Positions 1,000 to 30,273 of a DNA stretch of 33,946 nt are shown one piece after another. The notes below the pieces were generated by a model. The model saw nothing but the letters and a program-made list of their open reading frames with translations, ran no database searches and was not told the DNA's origin. Position 1 is the first letter of the stretch. Each line of letters opens with the position of its first letter. The stretch comes from Chiloscyllium plagiosum. Taxonomy: Eukaryota. Made by a program: the position numbers and the translations under genes. The stretch is taken from assembly GCF_004010195.1 (NCBI RefSeq), contig NC_057752.1:13840011-13873956 (forward strand), given 5' to 3'.

Positions 1000-3600
1000 T
1001 TTCGGGTGAACCGTGTGTCCGTTCGGGACTGTATTGCCGAACCCAACCTCGCGTCACCCTCACTGCGTACCCATACAGGGCCTTCCCCATCGATCCTGCA
1101 CCAGACTGTATCCCTCTCACTTAGAGGAGGCACATGGCCAGATTTGGTGTTCCTGATGCTGTTTCACCCTCCCTCTCCACTTCTGGGAATATCAAAGTCT
1201 TCTCCCCATCAGCAACTTTGCTGGAGCTGTCCCTGTCGTTGCGTGAAGGGTCGTCCTATAGTTAAACAGGGACTGAAACAGTTGGCTATGGAATGACGCT
1301 GTAGGCTGCTTCTTTAAGCCTGCCTTCAACTTTTGATCCACCCTTTCTGCTAGATCATTGGGCGATGGGTGGTATGGAGCTGTCCTTATGTACCGTATGC
1401 TTTTGGACTTTAGGAAATATTCAGATTCGCTGCTGGTAAATGACATCCCATTGATCGTGACCAATACTTCCAGGAGACTGCATATCGTGAACAATGGTCG
1501 CAGTGTCATCCTGGAGTTTGCCGAATGACCTTTCTGCACGTCCAACCACTTTGAATGGGTGCCCACAATGATCAGGAACATTGAGCCCATGAAAAGGACC
1601 AGCATAGTCAACATATAACTGAGTCCAGGGATTTTCCCAGCCATTCCCACAAAAGTGGGGGCACCGTTGGTGATGATTATTGTCCTTGTTGGCGCTCTGG
1701 GCACGGCCCCACCAGTGCAGCTATGTCGGCATCCAATCCTGGCCACCAGATATAGCTTCTTGCCAGCATCTTCACTTTGGAAGCCCTTGGCGAGGTTTGG
1801 CCAGTATCTGGCAGTACCGTTTACTCAGGACAATCGCCTGTGTTCCCCACAGGAAAATGCTGTCCTCTACGGTTTGTCTGGACTCGCTGGGTCCAGAAAG
1901 GTTCCAATTCTGGTTGCGATGGCCAATCTGTTTCCCCCATTACCCCCAGCTGTTTTAGTTTCACCAGCACAGGATCCTTTTGTGTCCACAGTCGGATATT
2001 GTCAGTGGTGACCAGAAAGGTGTCCAGGTGTTTATAACCAAAACAGACTCTTCCATGGAAGGCACCACAGATGGACCATCTGCCAATGGGAGGTGGCTCA
2101 AGGCTTCCGCATGAACCACTTGGTTTCCTGGACGGTGTTCTAGCTTGTACTTGTACGTGTGTGGCAGCGTCTTGTCTTCCTTCGGTCGCCCTAGCAGGAG
2201 TCTGTGATTGGTCACTACGACAAATTCGTTGGTGGAACGTCCTCACACCAAAGATGGTCACCAAACCTTCCTTCTCTATCTGGGCATGTTTGCATTCGGC
2301 GTTAGCCAAAGTCCAGGAAGTATATGCTATCGGGCATTCCTCTCCATTGGGCCAACAGTGATCTAACACTATCCCGATATCGTACAGGGAGGCATCACAT
2401 GTCTGACTGTGGATCGTAGTGGGCCAATGCCTTCGACAATGACAGCTGCCTTTTCACTTCCCTAAAGGCCACTTTTTGGCTACCATTTCCAAGGCTGACC
2501 CTTTCTCAATAGCAGGTGTGATGGTGCCAAGGCGGAGGCCAGGTTAGGTATGAATTTTCTGTAACAATTCACTAACCCAAGGAAAGGCCTGAGCTCCAGT
2601 ACAGACGTGGGAGCTGGGGCTACTTTGATCACCCTCTCCTTCTCTTCCAATGGGTGTAACCTGGTCTTGTTGATTCTGTAACCCACGTAGGTCAGTTGGG
2701 TCACCTGGAACACACGTTTTTCCCTTCTAAGGCACCTGGGAGAAACACTTAAGGACGATGTCCCAAGTTCTCTTTATTGGTCTTCCCTGTTATTAGTACA
2801 TCATCCAGATAAACGGCAACCTAGGGTAGCCCTTGTAAAATGTTCCCCATGGTCTGATGATACCCCAAATGGCCATCTTGGGTATGTCGGTGCAAACCCT
2901 TATGGCTATTAATTGCAGCATATTTCTGGGGCTCCTCCTCCAGTCGCAATTGCAGGCAGGCGTGGCTCATGTCCAGCTGTGGAGCAGTCCTCTGTGTGAG
3001 GGCTGGGGTATTATCCAGCTATGAGAAGGGCTTTACCGTTGGTTTAAACGGCAAACTGAGCCATCAGGCTTCACGATCAGGGTGACTGGTGCTGCCCACT
3101 CTGCCAACTGGTTTGATGATTCCTCCGCGCTCCAGCCACTCCTTTTGCCCGCAAGGCAATTGGCACCGGGCGGGCCTGGCGAAATCTCGGGTTCACTTCC
3201 TGGTCAATGTGAAAACTGACGTTGGCCCCTTTGCTAGCCCCAAGCCCTTCCTGAAATACTCCTGGGTCTTGCACCAGGACTTCACTCAGGCAGCCATTTT
3301 CCAATTGAAAAATGTTGAGGTGAAGCGTTCCCAACCAATTCCACCCCAATAGGCTGGGCCCAAGCCTTTTACTACCATCACAGGAGACTGGAACCAAAGT
3401 CCTACTCTTAATCTGCAACAGTTCCTCAGTGTATGTCCTCAGTGTGGCTGAGGTCTTGTGCAAACTTCAGGATTGGAGTCCCGAGTGAATCTTGTTCAAG
3501 ACCAATTCTGCAACCACAGAGACAGCTTCACTAGTATCAACCTCCATAGGAATTAGGTGACCGTTTAACCAAACTTTAATTTGAATCGGTACCAATTTAG
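1000..3600 (-). pseudogene. Gypsy pol remnant (protease, RT, RNase H, integrase)
   Basis: Motifs spread over ORFs 3467-3784, 3077-3463, 2480-2713, 1821-2369, 1961-2215, 1192-1746 and 849-1133 (DTVWCRIDGEGPVW, integrase C-terminal-like). Confidence 0.9.
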
Positions 3601-3868
3601 ATGTCACTAAGCAACTTATTTGTTCAAGCCCACACGTAGGGGGACTTTCCAGGGTGTGCACTCTCCTGGGTACCGGCCTACAAGTTTTCTTCCCCAAGTC
3701 AGGCCTCCTTTGCTGTCTTGAGTCCAAATACTGAGGCAACTCCAATGGCTCACCGGCCCAGATCCTGAAGAACTGTTTAGCCACTTGGGCCGAGGCTTGG
3801 CTTTGTTGTGGGGTCCTGCTCTGGGCTGGCCTAAGGTCCCCCTGCTTCAGATATAACTTGCATGAGGC

Positions 3869-4434
3869 TCAGCGATTGCCCGCACTCAAGTGGTGCTCCC
3901 CAAGCTCAGTCAAACAGGCGAGGGAGTCCACGTCCACTGGGATGGCCTGTAGCTCCCATGCTCCACTTGGTGTATTTTCTAACGAGAAAGCCAGTTGGAG
4001 AGCCTGTTTGAAATCCAGTTGGGCTTCAGTTAGTCGGCGCTTCTGCATGGTCACATTATTTATCCCACATAGCGAACATCAGGGTTAACCCAAAATCACA
4101 TGCCTCAGCCAATCGTCTCAAACTTGTCAAACTTCCTGATACGGATTCCCCCGGTTCTCTAACAGCCGAATAAAACCCATAGTGTCTCAGAATTTGAGGA
4201 GGTTTGGGGTTGTAATATTCCTTAACCAACTCTTGGACGTCCTTAGCGTCTGGTTTCTCTGGGAAAGTGATAATTGAAAATGCTGCAGGTCTACAAGCAG
4301 TCAGGAGGATTACTTGTTGCTTTTTATCTGTCCCAGAGTTATTTTGCCCCGAAACAATATCGCATTCTTTCCACATACTGGGCCCAGTCTTCAACAGCAG
4401 GATCAAACAAGTCAAGCTTCCCAAACAAAGGCAT
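3869..4434 (-). pseudogene. Gypsy gag remnant
   Basis: ORF pieces 4056-4424 and 3869-4054 (QKRRLTEAQLDFKQALQLA) plus the N-terminus from ATG 4434, broken by frameshifts. Confidence 0.85.
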
Positions 4435-4520
4435 GATGCCAGAACTGCTTACCCCAACTCAAAAATGGCTATTGCAAGCAAATGCTCTTTAGGCATGTAC
4501 TATCCCAGTCTCATCACCAC

Positions 4521-5079: not shown

Positions 5080-5236
5080 CCCAATCCCACCCTCCTCTAG
5101 CTTATCTCTCCACGCTTCAGGCTCTCTGCCTTTATTCCTGATGAAAGGCTTTTGCCCGAAACGTTGATTTTGCTGAAGCTCCTCAATGCTGCCTGAATTG
5201 CTGTGCTCTTCCAGCACCACTAATCCAGAACCTGGT
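5080..5236 (+). mobile_element. Penelope-like element terminal (pLTR) fragment with a hammerhead motif at ~5134-5169
   Basis: Near-identical to 13680-13757; contains CTGATGA-aggc tttt gccc-GAAACGTT. Confidence 0.75.
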
Positions 5237-7960: not shown

Positions 7961-8148
7961 AGACAGAAGTCGCACGACACAAGGTTATAGTCCAACAGGT
8001 TTATTTGGAATCACAAGCTTTCAGGGCGCTGCTCCTTCGCCTGATGAAGGGGCAGCGCTCCAAAAGCTTGTGATTTCTAATAAACCTGTTGGACTATAAC
8101 CTGGTATCGTGTGACTTTGCCCACCCCAGTCCAACACTGGTACCTCTA
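7961..8148. mobile_element. Fold-back PLE-derived insertion with 10-bp TSD and degenerate hammerhead cores
   Basis: Inverted arms ggttatagtccaacaggtttatt..cacaagcttt / aaagcttgtg..aataaacctgttggactataacc; TSD ctccattcaa at 7951-7960 and 8149-8158. Confidence 0.8.
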
Positions 8149-9931: not shown

Positions 9932-10019
9932 ATTACATAGGCCTGCCTTTGGCCCATATCCATTAATACCTAAGCTTAACAACAAAAAAATGCACCGCAG
10001 ACTTAAAATTAACAACTGA

Positions 10020-10210
10020 AATACATACATGCGAATGCATATATGTCTGTGTGTGTATATATGCACATGCAATTGTGTATATGTGTAAGTGTGTGTAGGT
10101 GAGTATATACGAGCGTGTATATGTGAATATACATTTGTGTATGCATGTATATCTGAATGAGTGTGTACATGTGTGTATCAATATACATGGGTATATGGAT
10201 ATGTGAGAGT
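10020..10210. repeat. Degenerate (TA/TG)n low-complexity repeat (a similar tract at ~7750-7910)
   Basis: Alternating purine-pyrimidine runs gtgtgtatatatgcacatg... Confidence 0.75.
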
Positions 10211-10759
10211 TTGTGTTTTATAATTTGTCCTTTTGTTCATTCACCCAGTTCTCACATGTTTCTGCCCTACCTTCTCCCCTTCAGGCACTGCCGGTCTCCC
10301 TTGTTTACAGCTTGTTTGTGTTCAAGCCCACACAGTGCCAAGGACAATGTAGCAGAGCCCGATAACATCTTTGACCCAGGTTGCCATTGAGAGGCAAGAT
10401 CAGAAAGCCTGGCAGCCAGTGAAACTCCCAGAGCTGGTCATTGCTGAGTTTGTTCATCAGGATTTTACAGTTGGTCCCTTGGCCACAGCATTATTTCGCT
10501 CTGAATGAGGGTCGCCGGACTTGAGGCATTAACTCTGTTTCTCTGTTTCGGTAACAAAGATTTTGTACCTGAGATGGTGCGGTGTACACTTCTCCCTGTA
10601 CTCTTACACTTGAGTACACATGACAATAAAACCACAACCTAAATCTCGATCTAATCTCAGCACATATGCTGTCAGACCTGCTGAGTTTCCCCAGCACTTG
10701 CTGGTTTTGGCCAGGTTTCCTGCTTCTGGTCATTATTCAGTAACATTTCAGATTCGTCG

Positions 10760-11050
10760 GAGTAGTACTGTTGTCTTGACATCAGGTATTCGTGATTTTA
10801 AGCTCCAGACTAAAGACTTGAGAAGGTAATCTGGGCTGATGATGCCACACTGCTAATTGCCCTTCCAATGAGGGCCTGTCTGATCTCTTAGCAGGATGTA
10901 GATGATCCCAAGGCACGAATATTGAAGGTTATGACATCCCAACCAATACTTACCACTTCGACTGACGTCAGAAAACCAATTCTCTGGGCCATTATCAGAT
11001 TGTTGTTGATAGGAGCCCCCTGTGGACAGGTTTGGTACCACATTTCGATA
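10760..11050 (+). mobile_element. Old SINE, probably DeuSINE-type (related pieces at ~6625-6725 + and ~21810-21990 -)
   Basis: Degenerate tRNA-like head followed by gggcctgtctg..ggatgtagatgatcccaaggcac, resembling the Deu-domain; recognised from memory only. Confidence 0.45.
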
Positions 11051-11074
11051 TTAAGAAGGAAAAAAGACATTGTT

Positions 11075-11375
11075 AATTTATTCATAGGATGTGGGCAGCC
11101 CAGACCAGGCCAGCATTTATTGTCCATCCCTAATTGCCCAGAGGGCAGCTAAGAGTCAACCACATTGGCTGTGGGTCCGGACTCACATACAGTTCAGAAC
11201 AGGTAAGGAGGGCAGTTTCCTTCCCTAAAGGACACTAGTAAACCAGGTGGGTTTTTCTGACAATGGATTTGTGGTCATCATTCGACTCTTAGTTCCAGGT
11301 TTTATTGCATTCAAATTCCACCATCTGCTGGGTTCCCGGAACATACCTGGACCTCTGGGTTACGAGTCTAACAAT
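11075..11375 (-). mobile_element. Second tRNA-derived SINE family copy
   Basis: Reverse complement matches 13085-13350, 22320-23240 and 32200-32535 (ctggttcac..cctttagggaaggaaa..gactccagacccacagcaatgtggttgactct). Confidence 0.75.
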
Positions 11376-11606
11376 AAAACCAAATATTTATCGTCTTTCA
11401 CAATCCTGGGACATACTACAGTGCCAATTCAGTAAGCCAAACGCAGAGGTGGGGTGGATGGGAAAGCATCAGTTCCATTAGCAGAAGGGTTAATAACCAG
11501 GGTGGGGCATCTATTTAAGTTTGAAGGTGAAGAGAAGAGTTGGCAAGAATTGGTTTCTGGGGAACTCACTGCCTGAACAGACAGATAAGGGAGAAGCTTT
11601 TGTAGT

Positions 11607-12126
11607 GGGCGGCACGGTGGTTAGCACTGCTGCCTCACAGCACCAGAGACCTGGGTTCAATTCCTGCCTCAGACAACTGTCTGTGTAGAGTTTGCACATT
11701 CACTGCGTGGGTTTCCTCCCACAGTCCAAAGATGTGCAGGTTAGGGTGAATTGGCCATGCTAAATTGCTGAAAATGTGTTGCTGGAAAAGCGCAGCAGGT
11801 CAGGCAGCATCCAGGGAACAGGAGAATCGACGTTTCGGGCATAAGCCCTTCTTCAGGAATGAGGAAAGTGTGTCCAGCAGGCGAAGATAAAAGGTAGGGA
11901 GGAGGGGCTTGGGGGAGGGGCGTTGGAAATGCGATAGGTGGAGGGAGGTCAAGGTGAGGGTGATAGGCCGGAGTGGGGTGGGGGCGGAGAGGTCAGGAAG
12001 AAGATTGAATGCTAAATTGCCCATAGTGTTGGGTGAAGGGGTAAATGTAAGGGAATGGGTCTGGGAGGGTTGGTGTGGACTTGTTGGGCTGAAGGGCCTG
12101 TTTCCACACTTTAAGTAATCTAATCA
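11607..12126 (+). mobile_element. HE1 SINE interrupted by a PLE insertion
   Basis: HE1 head at 11607 and tail at 12021-12126; continuity is restored when 11769-12020 is removed. Confidence 0.88.
11769..12008 (-). mobile_element. PLE pLTR fragment with 12-bp TSD and a hammerhead motif (11825-11860)
   Basis: TSD atgctaaattgc at 11757-11768 and 12009-12020; minus strand reads attc-CTGAAGA-a-gggc ttat gccc-GAAA-CGTC-gatt. Confidence 0.85.
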
Positions 12127-13084
12127 AACATTTCAGCAGTATTTAGACATTCACTTGCATTGCCATAGCCTCCAGGGATATGGGCTAAGAGCTGGAAACC
12201 GGGACTGGGGTGGTCTGATCTTTGTTGACTTGTGCATCCCAGTGGGTCAAATGTCAACGCTAATGAGTCTACAATCCAATGATTTGGGGGTGTGAAGTTT
12301 CTGGGGACGTCTACCATGCATGGAGGTTGTAGGATTCTTTCACTGAAGGATTTCTTCATGCTTCAGATGGTGTGGAAGAAATGTGCATGGAGACACGTTT
12401 CCATCGTTAGATGTTGGGTGGGTTCCATCCCCTTCCTTTTCATTGGGCTTTCAAGGATAGACCCTACCATGTATTCCCCACCCCCCTTCCCCCCAATCAC
12501 CACAATATGGGAAAGAGCCGTGACCAAACTGCATCAGCCTGATTGGTTTTCCAGCACAGAAACGATGGGGCCAATGGCTGCACCATCCTATAGTGCCCTC
12601 CAGTGCTGAATATGGCTGGCTGAGCTCATGGAGGTGCTTCCGCCATTCCCAGTTTTCACTGGGAGAGATGCAGAGAAACTACTCGAGGAGTCAAAAACGG
12701 GAGCGCGCCCATTGTTCGGATTGAAATCAGGAAATGCTTTCCTTTCCAACAGCAGATCAGGAATTCAAGACTGAGATGATTAGATTTTTAATCGGGGAAG
12801 TGTGTATAGCTGAGTGCGGTGGCAGTGCCCCTGCATTAGTAAGCCGGGGGCGAATGCTAATACAGTGCTCCCTGTCCCCTTTTCCTACTGTGACCCCGCT
12901 TTGAGGCCTGAAAGCTGTTGGGAGCCCCCTGAGGGATCTCGGAGAGAGTGGGAGGACAGCAGAACAGCTGTTCAAGCTTGCTCATTGCAACCTCGGGCTC
13001 ATGGGCAGCAAACGTTCTGACTGTGACCCTACATTTTCAGCTTGGGCTCTCGGGCCCCGAGTGTGGGAAGCACTGGTTTATACT

Positions 13085-13350
13085 TGGGGCACACAGGTTC
13101 AAATCCCACAACAGCGGCTGGTGGAGTTTAACCTCAGTGATGACATCCGGTATTGAAAGTCTCAGTGTTGGCGACCATGACAACTATCTGTTGTTATAAG
13201 AGCCTATCTGGTTCCCTTTAGGGAAGGAAATCTGCTGTCCTTACCTGGGCTGGCCCACATATGACTCAAGACCCCACAGCGATGTGGTCGTCTCCTACCT
13301 ACCCTCTGAAATCAGCAAGCACCTCAGCTCAAAGGGCATTTAAGGATGAT
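13085..13350 (+). mobile_element. Second SINE family copy
   Basis: ggttcaaatcccac B-box-like motif plus the shared body. Confidence 0.7.
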
Positions 13351-13359
13351 GGTTAAAAA

Positions 13360-13757
13360 CAATGACTGCAGGTGCTGGTTCCAAACTTCCAGCTCAGCAC
13401 TGTCCCCATGACGCCTGGAGGAAGAACGCCTCATCTTCCGCCTCGGAACACTTCAACCCCAGGGCATCAATGTGGACTTCAACAGTTTCCTCATTTCCCC
13501 TTCCCCCACCTCACCCTTGTTCTAAACTTCCAGCTCAGCACTGTCCCCATGACTTGTCCGGACTTGTCCTACCTGCATATCTCCTTTTCCACCTATCCAC
13601 TCCACCCTCTCCTCCCTGACCTATCACCTTCATCTCCTCCCCCACTCACCCATTGTACTCTATGCTACTTTCACGCCACCCCTACTCTCCTCTAGCTTAT
13701 CTCTCCACGGTCTAGGCTCTCTGCCTTTATTCCTGATGAAGGGCTTTTGCCCGAAAC
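13360..13757 (+). mobile_element. Penelope-like element 3' end: GIY-YIG C-terminal remnant plus pLTR with hammerhead core, cut by the gap
   Basis: From 13412 it reads RLEEERLIFRLGTLQPQGINVDFNSFLI (typical PLE endonuclease C-terminus); CTGATGA-a-gggc tttt gccc-GAAAC at 13733-13757. Confidence 0.85.
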
Positions 13758-14173
13758 NNNNNNNNNNNNNNNNNNNNNNNNNNNNNNNNNNNNNNNNNNN
13801 NNNNNNNNNNNNNNNNNNNNNNNNNNNNNNNNNNNNNNNNNNNNNNNNNNNNNNNNNNNNNNNNNNNNNNNNNNNNNNNNNNNNNNNNNNNNNNNNNNNN
13901 NNNNNNNNNNNNNNNNNNNNNNNNNNNNNNNNNNNNNNNNNNNNNNNNNNNNNNNNNNNNNNNNNNNNNNNNNNNNNNNNNNNNNNNNNNNNNNNNNNNN
14001 NNNNNNNNNNNNNNNNNNNNNNNNNNNNNNNNNNNNNNNNNNNNNNNNNNNNNNNNNNNNNNNNNNNNNNNNNNNNNNNNNNNNNNNNNNNNNNNNNNNN
14101 NNNNNNNNNNNNNNNNNNNNNNNNNNNNNNNNNNNNNNNNNNNNNNNNNNNNNNNNNNNNNNNNNNNNNNNNN
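13758..14173. other. Assembly gap (416 N)
   Basis: Run of N. Confidence 1.
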
Positions 14174-19145: not shown

Positions 19146-19379
19146 CTTTCTCCTCTTGCAAGGTGAGATTGCGGTTGCACAAGTTCCCTTTGCAGCACAC
19201 GATGCGGAGGTGAGGCCACGAATATTCACAGGGTAGATCCTGATATGGATGGCAGCCCTTCCGAATCTGACCCGGAATCCGGCTGTCGACCGAAACAAAG
19301 CACTGCACTCCGCTACAAGTCTCCGTTTTACAATAGCCATGCTCACAAACACACTCGAACCTCACGGCCTCCTGCTCAC
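19146..19379 (-). CDS. ACVRL1: Internal coding exon (phase 1-1, 234 nt): extracellular three-finger ligand-binding domain of a TGF-beta/BMP type I receptor, ALK1/ALK2 subgroup (ACVRL1-like; ACVR1 not excluded)
   Basis: Translates EQEAVRFECVCEHGYCKTETCSGVQCFVSVDSRIPGQIRKGCHPYQDLPCEYSWPHLRIVCCKGNLCNRNLTLQEEK, with 10 Cys, a CCx4CN cysteine box, a KGC motif and an NLT sequon. The CxCx4Cx4Cx4C spacing is as in ALK1, while some residues (CVCE, QCF, CNRN) resemble ALK2. Acceptor is ttgtctatttctcgcttacAG (AG at 19381-19380); putative donor AAAG|GCATGT at 19145. The family call is strong; the symbol is tentative. Confidence 0.85.
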
Positions 19380-19429
19380 CTGTAAGCGAGAAATAGACAA
19401 AACTTGGCAATGTCACAGTGAAATGGGCC

Positions 19430-22319: not shown

Positions 22320-23240
22320 AGCCGAGTGATGTTATCACTGGATTGTCAATCCTGAGACCCAGATAATGTTCTGGGGAAAAACAACAAAGGCTGGAGATAA
22401 GTGGGCCAGACAGCATCCACGGAGGGAGGGTAAGCTAACATTTCGAGTCACGATGACTCTTCATCAGAGCTGAAGTGGGGGGGGACAGCATTTATGCTAC
22501 AGTTCAGGGCGGAGGTGGTGGGTGCAGGCTGCTGGTGGGGAGAAGATGTTAATAGCTTCCATTAAGTGATCGGGATGTGAGCAAGGCACCCCATCATTCT
22601 GCCAGACTGGGAAGGACAGACAGTCCCACTGGAGTGGGAGGGGGGAGAGGAGGAGGACATGATTACAAGCTGAAAGAAATGGGAGTTGGTTCACAATTTT
22701 TTTAAAAGGTGCTTGAAGGCTGCCTGGATCTGGCAGTATCTCATCACTTGGAACACGGCCTTCTGGTCCACTCTCACTGACAGTCTGGTGGGTAAGAACC
22801 CCCCCCCAAATTCCACTCTGTCCTTCCCAGTCTGGGAGGTAGACACACCATTGTTCTGCTGTTCTCTCATTCCAATCACTTAATCTGAGCTCGCAACACC
22901 CTTTCGCCCCCAGCACAAACCTCCAAACTATTGCACATGTGTTGCCCCCTCCACTCTTCGGCTCTGAAGAATCGTGTGTGATCTCCAGCCTTTGTTGTCT
23001 TTGGTATGGATTCCAGCAGCTGCAGTAATTTGTTCCTCCATAATGTTCTGGGGACCCGGGTCGAATCCCACCATGGCAGATAAAATTAAAACCTGGAATT
23101 GAGGAGCAAACTACGACAGTGAATCTGTTGTCGATTGTTGGAAGAACTCATCTGGTTCACCTAATGTCCTTTGGGAACCATCCTTGCCTGATCTGGCCGA
23201 CACATGATTCCAGACCCACAGCAAGGTGATTGACTCTTGA
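22320..23240 (+). mobile_element. Second-family SINE interrupted by a PLE-derived fold-back insertion
   Basis: SINE head to 22377 resumes at 23040. Confidence 0.75.
22378..23039. mobile_element. PLE-derived insertion with inverted pLTR arms, 15-bp TSD and a hammerhead motif (22432-22471, minus)
   Basis: TSD ataatgttctgggga at 22363-22377 and 23040-23054; inverted acaacaaaggctggagat / atctccagcctttgttgt; minus strand agct-CTGATGA-a-gagtca tcg tgactc-GAAA-TGTT-agct. Confidence 0.8.
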
Positions 23241-23609: not shown

Positions 23610-24419
23610 AAAAACAAAATCACGGGACTATATGTACAGCATACATTTTCGTGACAACTTATTAGAATTGTTACTTTCTGAGATACTGACATTTTGCCTG
23701 CAACCCTTCCTCCCCATTTCTGACTATGCTGAATCACTGTGTGGTTTACTGTACCGTCCTCCCAGCACAAGAATAGTTAGCCATAAAAATATTGGATAAA
23801 GGCTTTGCAGGGACAACTAGCTTGGCGCTAAATTGGTACGCAGGTACCTACTGTCTCCGAAGGGTGGTTAAAGAATACCTGAGGAAAAGAAAACGTTCTT
23901 TTTTGTTGGTTCATCTTGCCACCAGGCTGTGAGGTCAACTTGCATTGTGTCACCCTTTGTGTTGTCTCCTGTCTCACATCAGAGTTGGGTTTAACCCCTT
24001 GCGTGCCCCGTGAGCCTCTTGCCCAACTGCGTGCTTGGAGGTGCCATCTTTGTTTGGCCTCTTCGTGCCGGAAGTTTCCACAGAGAGGGTTTGTGTAGAA
24101 AAGTGGGACTTGGTTGCAAAAGCAAAATGTTACGGGATGTTGGGAATCGGGAATATGGATGCTAAAAGGTGTGGGAGGATGGAAGCAAAAAGGGTCAGGG
24201 TTCCTGACTGCTCACCGTTTAGCCTGTCTTTTGGGTTTTGGGTGAGCGTAAGAAAATACAGACTCTCTGCAGGCAAGGTTAGCACACACTATGACTTACC
24301 TACCAGACTTTGAGTGGACCAGACGGCCTTGTTCCAAGTGATGAGATGCTGCTATGCCCCATGATTGCAGGCCAGGGCTGGCAGGGGGTTAACAGGGAAG
24401 GAGTTCAATGCTTTCAGCA

Positions 24420-25505
24420 GTGGCGCAGGTGACTTATTTTCTCTTCTCGTCCGTGTGTAAGGATACTAGTGAGAGAGGTCCTGTCTAGTTGATGGTCATG
24501 TATCCTGGTGGCTTGTTTTCTGCCTGTTTGCCCAATGTAGTGTTTGTTACAGTCATAGAGTTGTAGAGATGTACAGCATGGAAACAGACCCTTCGGTTCA
24601 ACCCCTCCGTGCCGACCAGATATCCCAACCCAATCTAGTCCCACCTGCCAGCACCCGGCCCATATCCTCTGGCAGCTCATTCCATACACGTACCACCCTC
24701 TGCATGAAAACGTTGCCCCTTAGGTCTCTTTTATATCACCCTAAACCTATGCCCTTGAGTTCTGGACTCCCTGACCCCAGGGAAAAGACTTTGTCTATTT
24801 ATCCTATCCGTGCCCCTCATGATTTTATAAACCTCTATAAGGTCACCCCTCAACCTCCAATGTTCCAGGGTTAACAGCCCCAGCCTGTTCAGCCTCTCCC
24901 TGTAGCTCAAATCCTCCAACCCTGGCAACATCCTTGTAAATCTTTTCTGAACCCTTTCCAGTTTCACAACATCTTTCCGATAGGAAGGAGACCAGAATTG
25001 CACGCAATATTCCAACAGTGGCCTACCTTGTAAGGTATTTTGTAAATGACATTAGTTTTGCTTGTTGCCTGTATAGGGTCTTAAGTTCATTTAGCTGCTC
25101 TTTTTAGTGTGTTTGTGGGCTACTATGATACCAAGGAGTCTTGAGTAGTCTGGCAGTCATTTCCGAGATGCCTTTGATGTAGGGGAGAGGTGGCTCGGGT
25201 TTCTGGGTGCGTTCTGTCTGCTTGTTGGGGTTTGTTGCTGAAAAATTGGCAGACTTTGTTCATTGGGTTGCCTGTTCTTTTTGAATATGCTGTATAGGTG
25301 ATTTTCCGCTGCTCTGCGTAGTTAACATCACCAACCCAAGGAAACCTAAACTCATAAATGGAAAGTGGGCCATGCCACCAGTGCTTCATCCAGAGGCACA
25401 CTGAAGATGTTACCTAGTATGGTGACGAAACGACTGAAAATGAACCTTCCAGCTCAGTGAGCAAACCTGCATCCAGGACCTCCACCTGAGCTACAAATCT
25501 TCTCG
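24420..25505 (-). mobile_element. Penelope-like element remnant (GIY-YIG endonuclease region) with an inverted pLTR piece at ~25325-25505
   Basis: KTNVIYKIP (above 25026) joins DCNKHYIGQTGRKQATRIHDHQL (below 24555), giving the GIY..YIG motif; plus-strand hammerhead-like CTGAAGA-t-gttacc..ggtgac-GAAACGAC at 25401-25434. Confidence 0.85.
24555..25025 (-). mobile_element. CR1 LINE 3' fragment inserted into the PLE GIY-YIG motif
   Basis: EYCVQFWSPSYRKDVVKLERVQKRFTRMLPGLEDLSYRERLNRLGL..LRGDLIEVYKIMRG. Confidence 0.92.
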
Positions 25506-26157: not shown

Positions 26158-26290
26158 ATGTGGAGAGCTGGGGTGGACAAAATTGAAAATCTCTCCAACA
26201 CCCAGATTACAGTCCAACAGCTTCATTTGGAATCGTGAGCTTTGAGCTGTTGGACTATAACCTGGTGTTTGTGAGTGTTTTATTTTGTAT
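26158..26290. mobile_element. Internally deleted fold-back PLE derivative
   Basis: aacacccagattacagtccaacagct / agctgttggactataacctggtgtt inverted arms; same family as 7961-8148 and 30036-30273. Confidence 0.65.
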
Positions 26291-27612: not shown

Positions 27613-28559
27613 GTTGAAGATGGGGCTTTGTACCTCTTCCACTTCACTATTTTGCAACCTCTAACTCCCTTTTTGAATTTTATTTTTCTTGTCCCTGCTT
27701 GCATATCCGTGTTGCAGGATTCTTGCTTTTTACTGGGCTACAATGTGTCACCCAGTATTCTGAGGACGTGGCTATATTAAGACTGTGTGTGAGATCAGTG
27801 TTGATTAGTGAGACAGTTACAAATGAGCCCGTGCACACTCTCAATCCTTATCGCTCAGGCAACTAGGGATGAAGCAGCTTGCTCTTATCACATATCTAAC
27901 ATTCTCCTGCCCACACAAGGGTGATGAAATCAGCATGACATTGGACGTGGAGTGGAAAATCTAGCTAACACCAAATCTGCATCTGCCCCTTAGGGCATCC
28001 GATGAGCCATAAACCAGTTTCCCTTTTTGTGCAAGTCTCAATTTTTTTTTTTTTTTGTCTGACTTTTATTTTTGCTAGTGTTTGCTTTGGCTGCTTGTCC
28101 AATTTTGCGTGTGCAGTCTTCAGCTGCTTTCTCCTGTCTCGAATCTTGTTATGTTAACGTTTTGTCTCTGAGTGAGAATTTGTTGGGAGGAACCAGCATG
28201 AGAAATGAACACAGCATGTTACAGCGCTGTACAGGCCCTTCGGCCCTCGATCTTGCGCTGACCTGTGGAACCAATCTGAAGCCCACCTAACCTACACTAT
28301 TCCATTCCCATCCATATGTCTATCCAATGACCATTTAAATGCCCTGAAAGTTGGCGAGTCGACAACTGTTGCAGGCAGTATGATTTCTGCTTCTTGGTTT
28401 TAAAATTTATTTGTGGACGACTCACTTTACTGGTTTCACCAAAAAAAAAATCGCAGTTGGCATGCTCTTGATTTGTGAATAGTATTTGTGTGCAAGGTTC
28501 AGTGCCTTTTTTATCCACTGAGCTATTCCTCCACATGCAAGGTGACCCCTGATATGAGG

Positions 28560-28769
28560 AGAAAGTGAGGTCTGCAGACGCTGGAGATCAAAGCTGAAAC
28601 TTTATTGCTGGAACAGCACAGCAGGTCAGGCAGCATCTAGGGAACAGAAGATTCGACGTTTCGGGCACATGCCCTTCTTCAGGATTCCTGAAGAAGGGCA
28701 TGTGCCCGAAACGTCGAATCTTCTGTTCCCTAGATGCTGCCTGACCTGCTGTGCTGTTCCAGCAATAAA
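28560..28769. mobile_element. Young fold-back PLE-derived insertion: perfect 86-bp inverted repeat and 18-bp TSD
   Basis: 28599-28684 is the exact reverse complement of 28686-28771; TSD gtgac[c/t]cctgatatgagg at 28542-28559 and 28770-28787. Confidence 0.9.
28683..28720 (+). ncRNA. Minimal type I hammerhead ribozyme (predicted cleavage after C28715); mirror copy on the minus strand
   Basis: Stem I gattc/gaatc, core CTGAAGA, stem II gggc-atgt-gccc, GAAA, palindromic ACGT stem III, GUC cleavage triplet. Confidence 0.75.
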
Positions 28770-28905
28770 GTGACTCCTGATATGAGGCTTGGTTTACATA
28801 GGCTTAGCCTTTAAGGATTGTGTTTTGTGTGTGTGTGTGCATGCCTGAGTGGAGACTACAAAGGTATTGTACACCACCTTGCCTCTGATCACCTGAAGCA
28901 CCGTT

Positions 28906-29400
28906 CTCTCACGCTCACTGCACAACACCCAGGTTACGATCCAACAGGCTTATTTGGGAGTGGTGCTGCTTCAGGTAACTGTGTGGCAAAGGATCATAAG
29001 ACACAGAATTTATTGCAAATTATTAGAGTCCTGCGACTGAAGCGATATATTGAACAAACCTAGATTGCTGTTAAGTCTTTCATCTTTGAGAATGGGCTGT
29101 TGGTTTCTGTTTGTTCATATGTAAATCCCAGAACATTGCTCAAGTCACATTCTCAAGAAAACCTTCAGGTTTTCTCTGTGATTGTTTGCTATAAATTCTG
29201 TGTCTTATGATCCTGCTCCACAGCTACCTGATGAAGGAGCAGCGCTCCGAAATAAGCCTGTTGGATCGTAACCTGGGTGTTGTGCAGTGAGCGTGAGAGT
29301 ACATTGCTTCCAAAGAAACTTGTTGTACTATAACCTGGTGTTGTGACTTTTTTTAATAAGCCTTTTTCCTCCCCAGTCCAACACCAGCTCTTCCACATCA
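28906..29400. mobile_element. PLE-derived element with long inverted arms and a partial hammerhead (29228-29252)
   Basis: Perfect 50-bp IR 28906-28955 / 29250-29299; inner imperfect IR 28971-29019 / 29185-29231; pLTR tail to ~29400. Confidence 0.8.
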
Positions 29401-30035
29401 TGGCTAACAGCAGCAGGTTCCCCATAACTGCCTACTGGCTTCGTGGTCGCCCAGATGCTAATGTCTGCCAGGAATGTAATGCTTGGAAATAACGGTTGTT
29501 GTAATTGCAATGACAAAAAACACCGGTGTGGAAAGGCTTCTGACTCAGACCCACGACCTGAGCTGTGGCCTTCTGCCTTAGTCAAGTACAAACCCATTGG
29601 AGCACCAGTTTCTGAGCCCTGATGCAGCCCCTGTCCCAAGCTCTTGGTGTAATAAGTATCTGTGGATCCTTCAATACAATGACATCTGGTCCCAGTTTCT
29701 TGTTATAGGAATAATGTAATCAGTGCCATTTCAGGTAAAACACCCTGCTGGATGCTAATTTGCACCAATTAGCCAAAAAAAATCCAAAAATGAGAAGGTC
29801 TTGGAGTGTTGCTGAACAAAGAGACCTTGGAGTGCAGGTTCACAGCTCCTTGAAAGTGGAGTCACAGGTAGATAGGATAGTGAAGAAGGCGTTTGGTATG
29901 CTTTCCTTTATTGGTCAGAGTATTGAGTACAGGAGTTGGGAGGTCATGTTGCGGCTGTACAGGCCTCTGTCCAATTTTGGGTCTCCCTGCTGTCGGAAGG
30001 ATGTTGTGAAACTTGAAAAGATTTACAAGGATGTT

Positions 30036-30273
30036 TTGGAGATGCCGGTGTTGGACTGGGGTGTACAAAGTTTAAAAATCTCAACACCAGGTTATAGTCC
30101 AACTGGTTTAATTGGAACCACTAGCTTTCAGAGCGTTGCTCCTTCATCAGGTGGTAGTGGATAGGATTGAGCCCTCCATTACCCCCGATGAAGGAGCGTC
30201 ACTCTGAAAGCTAGTGCTTCCAATTAAACCTGTTGGACTATAACCTGGTGTTGTACACAAGTTAAAAATCTCT
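30036..30273. mobile_element. Fold-back PLE insertion with 10-bp TSD
   Basis: TSD caag[g/a]atgtt at 30026-30035 and 30274-30283; inverted arms caacaccaggttatagtccaac..ctagctttcagag / ctctgaaagctag..gttggactataacctggtgttg. Confidence 0.82.
30117..30155 (-). ncRNA. Minimal type I hammerhead ribozyme (CUA triplet)
   Basis: Minus strand accac-CTGATGA-a-ggagc aac gctct-GAAA-GCTA-gtggt: 5-bp stem I, stem II with one GU pair, palindromic AGCT stem III. Confidence 0.7.

Follow-up and report, generated by a model that had tools for sequence, protein, structure and literature searches.

How does a perfect palindrome with a hammerhead motif on each strand come to lie in a shark chromosome, and did the ribozyme take part in its making? 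The question is raised by a locus at positions 28542–28787 of a 33,946-nt stretch of the Chiloscyllium plagiosum genome (NC_057752.1, positions 13,840,011–13,873,956 of the forward strand; hereafter the window, to which all coordinates refer). The original prediction, made from the sequence alone, described a recent Penelope-like insertion that may have folded back at a ribozyme-defined end. The unit is a 210-bp non-coding insertion of a hammerhead-bearing pLTR end, present as two 5′-truncated copies placed head to head, and the locus holds no coding sequence. Its anatomy, a frame link, and read data agree with the predicted Penelope-like insertion product, here of a lineage-restricted sub-family. 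That it is a Penelope-like insertion unit is close to certain.

Anatomy of the Palindrome and Its Flanks

As predicted, two 86-nt arms with 100% complementarity surround a single T at 28685 and form a 173-bp palindrome. By comparison, 20 mononucleotide shuffles of the window yielded longest perfect arms of 8–11 nt. The left, inverted arm (28599–28684) is a 5′-truncated pLTR copy with its sense on the minus strand. The right, direct arm (28686–28771, plus strand) is a 5′-truncated pLTR copy without a tail, and its native start is at 28684. Measured against the untruncated copy at 11856, the left arm begins 2 nt and the right arm 4 nt before the C of its own CUGA core (−2 and −4). Local alignments to the same copy place the head-to-head junction at 28684–28685. 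A28684 fits both arms (a 1-nt overlap), and T28685 is native to the right arm. Both arms carry the same letters at sites where these letters are the minority in the family (28670/28700, 28614/28756, and 28648/28722 in the family-read table).

The left arm alone is followed by a tail of the Penelope-like element (28560–28598, minus strand; 39 bp), which is covered by family depth in all four sequencing runs used. Outside the tail lies the left target-site duplication (28542–28559, plus strand; 18 bp), whose last 3–4 nt also match the element's end. The right duplication (28770–28787, plus strand) differs from it by one mismatch and shares its first 2 nt with the right arm. Thus, the order of the unit is duplication, tail, inverted arm, direct arm, duplication. 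The proposed 18-bp target-site duplication holds as a direct repeat, with a chance of about 1e-5 over the registers tried, but it is a 17/18 match and not an exact one. It also does not bound the palindrome directly, as had been supposed: on the left, 39 bp of element sequence intervene between repeat and arm, and on the right the two overlap by 2 nt.

Hammerhead Motifs in the Arms

A motif scan recovered the two predicted back-to-back hammerheads, one minimal type I motif on each strand (CUGAAGA, a 4-bp stem II, and GAAA-C-G-UC). The features of the class are present, namely the CUGANGA and GAAA boxes, stems I and II, a UH cut triplet, and a palindromic remnant of stem III. The plus-strand motif (28683–28720) has 5/5 pairs in stem I and a predicted cut after C28715. 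When this motif is folded alone, hammerhead stems I and II are the predicted minimum-energy fold (−10.7 kcal/mol, z −2.0). The minus-strand motif (28650–28687, predicted cut at 28655) has 4/5 stem I pairs with an A-A mismatch, and the hammerhead is not its predicted fold (−7.6 kcal/mol, z −1.1). The claim of a fully paired plus-strand stem I with a GUC site therefore stands as to the pairing (gattc/gaatc, 5/5), but the fifth pair is made by the junction, with G28683 coming from the left arm. The three non-inverted relatives in the window have C or T at this position.

No Rfam hammerhead family reached the gathering score anywhere in the window. Between 28400 and 30400, Rfam returned only sub-threshold matches to microRNA hairpins and one to a snoRNA, with E values up to 10; the microRNA matches reflect hairpin shape only. 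Because Rfam has no match, the hammerhead call relies on the motif scan and on the published description of minimal hammerheads, which occur in the pLTRs of metazoan Penelope-like elements (PMC4209133). According to the same source, single minimal hammerheads did not cleave in vitro and a dimer was needed. A hammerhead motif scan of metagenome, viral, and prokaryote genome contigs gave 0 matches, and a 20-mer search gave 12 metagenome loci, all 12 of them chance matches of 19–22 nt.

Two further hammerhead-like cores in the window belong to other families (22441–22467, minus strand; 25401–25430, plus strand). The core at 25401 follows decayed coding-like sequence (24400–25400) that is interrupted by a LINE piece. 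At 1192–4450 on the minus strand, decayed frames resemble an LTR retrotransposon gag-pol, with integrase-, RNase H-, and RT-like stretches recognized by eye.

Relatives in the Window and the Link to a Penelope-Like Protein

The window also contains three non-inverted copies of the family, each with 45 nt or more of its upstream sequence retained. The copy at 11767–11860 (minus strand) has native upstream sequence and is 89–91% like the arm; it is the reference for the truncation points. A bridging copy at 5134–5216 (plus strand) is 78% like the arm, and its upstream sequence is identical at 75 of 85 positions to that of a copy at 13733. The related copy at 13412–13757 (plus strand) contains a 37-codon remnant of the end of a Penelope-like RT and GIY-YIG protein, has the same hammerhead motif 211 nt later, and runs into an N gap. 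This 416-N assembly gap (13758–14173) starts inside the family hammerhead, right after GAAAC, and may hide another inverted structure.

Pfam found no family in the 37-codon remnant. However, window positions 13412–13522 match residues 425–458 of a whale shark protein (P0013) at 26 of 34 residues (76%), and this protein has a GIY-YIG domain above the Pfam cut-off (E 9e-5) and an RVT_1 domain below it (E 9e-5). In a zebra shark gene model (P0014), the last 14 residues read through the same hammerhead frame, and 8/14 are identical to the arm's translation. RT or GIY-YIG families are carried by many of the at least 120 listed relatives of P0014. The arm family is thus linked, indirectly, to an endonuclease-bearing Penelope-like element through a chain from the arm to the 5134 copy, the 13733 copy, and the P0013-like frame. 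A cysteine-rich linker seen by eye between the RT and the endonuclease in P0013 and P0014 suggests the Neptune clade.

Three of the eight protein matches to the remnant (P0001, P0002, and P0008) were dropped as unrelated repeat proteins, and P0003–P0007, taken singly, gave no RT or GIY-YIG family. Three public gene models from sharks and rays that bear the names of host genes (P0012, P0017, and P0065) match Penelope-like or other repeat-derived coding pieces, likely through mis-annotation or exonization.

Public Sequencing Runs and the Age of the Insertion

Reads from four of 24 listed runs were aligned at a likeness threshold of 90%. The family is very abundant, with about 10,000–14,000 contig pieces on the element per run, although summed depth on the element does not equal copy number. 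In all four runs, the commonest loose end is at 28556–28557, the outer end of the tail (48, 89, and 87 contigs; 156 and 69 reads). Therefore, the element's end overlaps the left duplication by 3–4 nt. One contig of run X1 (contig 1, depth 23) leads from the left flank through the duplication into 23 nt of the tail, with one extra base relative to the window; the assembly itself may derive from the X1 sample. None of the listed contigs bridges the center with 31 letters on both sides. An empty target site was absent among the 15 of 111 joints shown, where coverage excluded the repeat at 28815–28890 and so the right junction.

The sub-family has spread in this lineage, whereas a related species has almost none of it. 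At 28600, 28602, and 28604, the letters found in the window account for more than 99% of the depth in X1 and for about 95% of that in X3, but for less than 8% in the related organism B (X13). Similarly, contig pieces at least 99% like the reference number 911/12,167 (7.5%) and 1,297/13,674 (9.5%) in the same species versus 124/9,965 (1.2%) in the related one.

Four of the 24 pieces shown, from a total of 36,450, cross the center. Three from the related species (X13 records 10–12) do so without gaps, with 36/14, 26/23, and 14/36 nt on the two sides, and that species has no depth on the flanks. The fourth (X3 record 21) crosses with three gaps (30/28 nt). These pieces may represent other loci that fold at this point or close to it, since native upstream sequence could not align within five differences. 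Contigs of other copies also step back by 35–39 nt (28717 to 28683, 28589 to 28555, and 28633 to 28595), suggesting short tandem duplications. One step-back contig (depth 101 in X1) restarts the hammerhead 2 nt after the predicted cut.

The insertion was proposed to be recent, a term that holds in the sense of restriction to a lineage and need not imply polymorphism; 0/86 differences between the arms allow up to 3.4% divergence. One difference in 104 positions corresponds to 0.02–5.2% divergence. With the mutation rate of the epaulette shark (7e-10 per base per generation; PMC10587355) serving as a proxy only, the age span is about 0.2 to 37 million generations.

Transcripts, the Hairpin, and the Ribozyme

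A poly(A) single-cell RNA run, of which 2% was read, gave 884 reads on the element, 98% of them running on into other sequence. None of the reads in this 2% fell on the unique flanks of the locus. The RNA reads of the family, unlike the DNA, show a direction-biased T>C change at 28652, 28659, and 28660 (4–7 reads each). In one mate direction the change was seen in 4/76 reads at 28659 and 5/73 at 28660, versus 0/46 and 0/45 in the other direction and at most 0.1% in DNA contigs. The change was not listed at the mirror sites 28710/28711. As evidence for A-to-I editing the change was set aside: it is compatible with editing of other copies, but weak, as the reads come from other copies with at least five other differences and from another individual.

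A read-through transcript is predicted to form the expected long hairpin (−188.7 kcal/mol), which would be a candidate substrate for Dicer or ADAR. The further proposal that hairpin and ribozyme compete fares poorly. Forcing the hammerhead in the read-through RNA costs 56 kcal/mol relative to the hairpin, and folding predictions favor the hairpin at all four transcript prefixes tested. The antisense arm is made first on either strand, and single minimal hammerheads show no cleavage in vitro as described in PMC4209133. A switch between the two folds is thus unlikely on these models, and the prediction is that the hairpin prevails over the ribozyme and that the insertion is a dead copy. Extrusion of a cruciform would be possible in principle (single-strand DNA hairpin, −117 kcal/mol).

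About 9 kb from the palindrome, at approximately 19150–19380 on the minus strand, lies an exon-like frame for an activin type I/II receptor ectodomain (PF01064, E 1e-4, above the cut-off). Simple scans of the window found no upstream, signal-peptide, transmembrane, or kinase exons of an activin-receptor-type gene.

Position of the Fold Relative to the Core and the Cut

With arms that begin at −2 and −4 from CUGA, the fold-back point lies beside the 5′ side of the ribozyme core, where it had been placed. The predicted GUC cut after C28715 (+28) is 30 nt downstream of the palindrome's center. Across the five inverted pairs in the window, the arms start at −2/−4, +6/−1, about −18/−11, about −52 (both), and +20/+48. 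The ends at about −52 derive from arm-to-arm similarity, and the partner arm also served as reference for the −11. All pairs but the first are of a second family, with its cut at +29. None of the ten arm ends in these pairs is at the cut site, and three of the five pairs have both ends at most 20 nt from the core's first base, while two fold far away. Truncation at the core is therefore common but not general: two of the five pairs fold elsewhere, and non-inverted copies are untruncated.

The second hammerhead-bearing Penelope-like family forms head-to-head pairs at 7967–8117, 26168–26289, 28895–29400, and 30031–30254. Its arms are 83–91% complementary where measured, and its fold points vary. 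The pair at 28895 includes an extra partial repeat at 29305–29400. A MITE-like element that moves as a palindromic unit was also considered for the locus and rejected, because the two ends are asymmetric by 39 bp and the center is not constant, either from one inverted pair of the window to another or in X3 record 21, where it differs by 3 nt.

Cleavage did not make the fold end, because a cleaved RNA would start after the core, yet the core sits in both arms. A ribozyme-defined end in the sense of cleavage is contradicted by the 30-nt offset and by the lack of arm ends at the cut. In Drosophila virilis Penelope, a splice junction lies at the start of helix I (PMC4209133). A splice junction at this position was examined as the cause of the stop and rejected; a pyrimidine tract is present in the native sequence, but immediately before −4 there is no AG.

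Origin of the Insertion

We favor, with some reserve, a two-primer route over a snap-back of one cDNA. The endonuclease would cut the two target strands about 18 bp apart. Each 3′ end would then prime a cDNA, using one of two internal start sites separated by about 40 nt, and the tail would be the difference between them. Priming may be helped by the 2-nt (right) and 3–4-nt (left) matches of the target to the element's two ends. Both cDNAs would pass the uncleaved ribozyme and halt at almost the same point, which is likely where a short template RNA has its 5′ end, and repair would join them through the shared A.

Biochemical work on a Penelope-like protein provides a precedent, as the protein cuts and extends both target strands in vitro from two internal RNA sites that bound the tail (PMC11167929). 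One RT start site in that system lies 111–118 nt past the start codon within the hammerhead, and the ends here are 79–81 and 120–124 nt past the equivalent base. Loss of hammerhead cleavage did not abolish insertion in vitro in that study, and the RNA reads described there include none that end at the cut (PMC11167929). An adjacent inverted 5′-truncated copy and a one-sided tail of 30–40 bp have been reported for Penelope-like insertions (PMC8557442), and PMC11167929 also describes the 30–40-bp tail. The same-centered folds at other loci count in favor of the two-primer route. The minority letters common to both arms count against it, since snap-back or gene conversion explains them as well as two primings on one RNA.

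For why the cDNAs stop before the core, the 5′ end of a short template is the best guess. Untruncated non-inverted copies and the two of five pairs that fold far away count against it. A bolder version, speculative and rather doubtful, would have shark Penelope-like elements make a discrete RNA, about 125 nt long, with its start immediately upstream of the core. Its two-primer insertion would systematically plant perfect 85-bp hairpins at thousands of loci, and an uncut, protein-bound hammerhead would mark the template's 5′ end. If true, the planted hairpins would be a lineage-specific source of double-stranded RNA for ADAR or Dicer.

The main rival to the two-primer route is a snap-back, which is possible though on balance unlikely. 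One cDNA from a single nick would fold near the ribozyme and copy itself, and an endonuclease or repair would resolve the second arm 39 nt short. The identity of the arms, minority letters included, is what this route would give. Self-priming or fold-back has been proposed for palindromes at inverted junctions with 8–10-bp duplications (PMC3846280), and endonuclease resolution for the tail (PMC8557442). However, a 1-nt center cannot be a hairpin loop and leaves no templated loop, and the native upstream sequence seems to offer no snap-back primer there; these points disfavor the route. Two start sites also account directly for the short arm stopping roughly one tail length earlier than the long arm (PMC11167929). 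Moreover, 2 nt at the end of the short arm agree with the target duplication.

An older insertion whose arms were later made identical by gene conversion or hairpin-guided repair is improbable. Such a history could account for a target duplication with 1/18 mismatches beside arms with 0/86, and for the several minority letters common to the arms. The difference between 1/18 and 0/86 is not significant (Fisher p 0.17), and near-identical relatives exist without conversion among the pieces at least 99% alike from the same species.

Even less probable is that hammerhead self-cleavage made the RNA end for the fold-back and left a locus that acts as a hairpin-versus-ribozyme switch. The fold does lie within ribozyme stem I, and the three window pairs that end near the core's first base fit this idea. 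Against it, a head-to-head transcript contains one sense ribozyme, and minimal hammerheads need a dimer (PMC4209133), while cleavage-dead mutants insert in vitro (PMC11167929). The position of the cut relative to the center and to all ten arm ends is equally adverse, as is the predicted energy gap, with the hairpin lower at every prefix.

Least probable of all is an assembly or amplification chimera. In its favor, the full length of the unit is not covered by any single read or contig among those listed, the window contains two N gaps, one of which falls at a family copy, and perfect palindromes are a known class of artefact. However, a chimera would neither carry a one-sided tail nor lead back into unique flank by way of a duplicated target, and the X1 contig, which may come from the assembly sample, includes the flank, the left duplication, and 23 nt of the tail.

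Significance

The single locus matters little, being one of very many dead Penelope-like stumps. It is nonetheless a clean example: the identity of the arms, the overlaps at both junctions, and the tail are all legible at single-base resolution, and they fit the two-primer route made plausible by the in vitro work on the lizard element. Genomic ends are mapped in Fig. S2 of PMC11167929, which may be relevant to the end position. A literature search of titles and passages returned none on shark copies that end just before the core. The architecture of the unit is already published, and the tendency to end a few bases before the core, not at the cut, was not found in print within that scope.

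Comparison with Known Systems

In LINE-1 twin priming, both target strands prime, which gives an inversion between target duplications. The two pieces in that system copy different parts of the RNA, whereas both pieces here copy the same part.

The metazoan minimal hammerheads of PMC4209133 share the core, the short stem I, the extra base before stem II, and the palindromic ACGU that replaces stem III. The opposite-strand pairs described there are 100–700 bp apart, whereas the cores here are 5 nt apart and fully complementary. Non-LTR retrozymes (10.64898/2026.07.22.740005) are likewise short, non-coding, and derived from Penelope-like pLTRs with a type I hammerhead. They form head-to-tail tandem arrays, however, and identity with them was rejected because the unit here is head to head. 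Therefore, no unit-length or circular RNA can be cut out of it.

Poseidon of the green anole (PMC11167929) has the same two ends about 40 nt apart, at about 80 and 120 nt past the start-codon position of the hammerhead, and as described there the hammerhead is kept uncut in the copy, as it is here. Unlike Poseidon, the sub-family here has CUGAAGA without an AUG, and its shark relatives P0013 and P0014 have the cysteine-rich linker between the RT and the endonuclease. The target here is also not AT-rich and has short matches to the element ends.

The closest system is the canonical insertion unit of endonuclease-bearing Penelope-like elements, which has the same truncated and inverted copies, one-sided 30–40-bp tail, duplication, junction palindrome, and pLTR hammerhead (PMC8557442; PMC3846280; PMC8969392). 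The duplication here is up to 18 bp, compared with 8–10 bp in the rotifer examples described. In contrast to the canonical unit, each arm has only about 85–125 nt of the element, there is no coding sequence, and the whole unit is a palindrome, with both arms stopping at most 4 nt from the hammerhead core.
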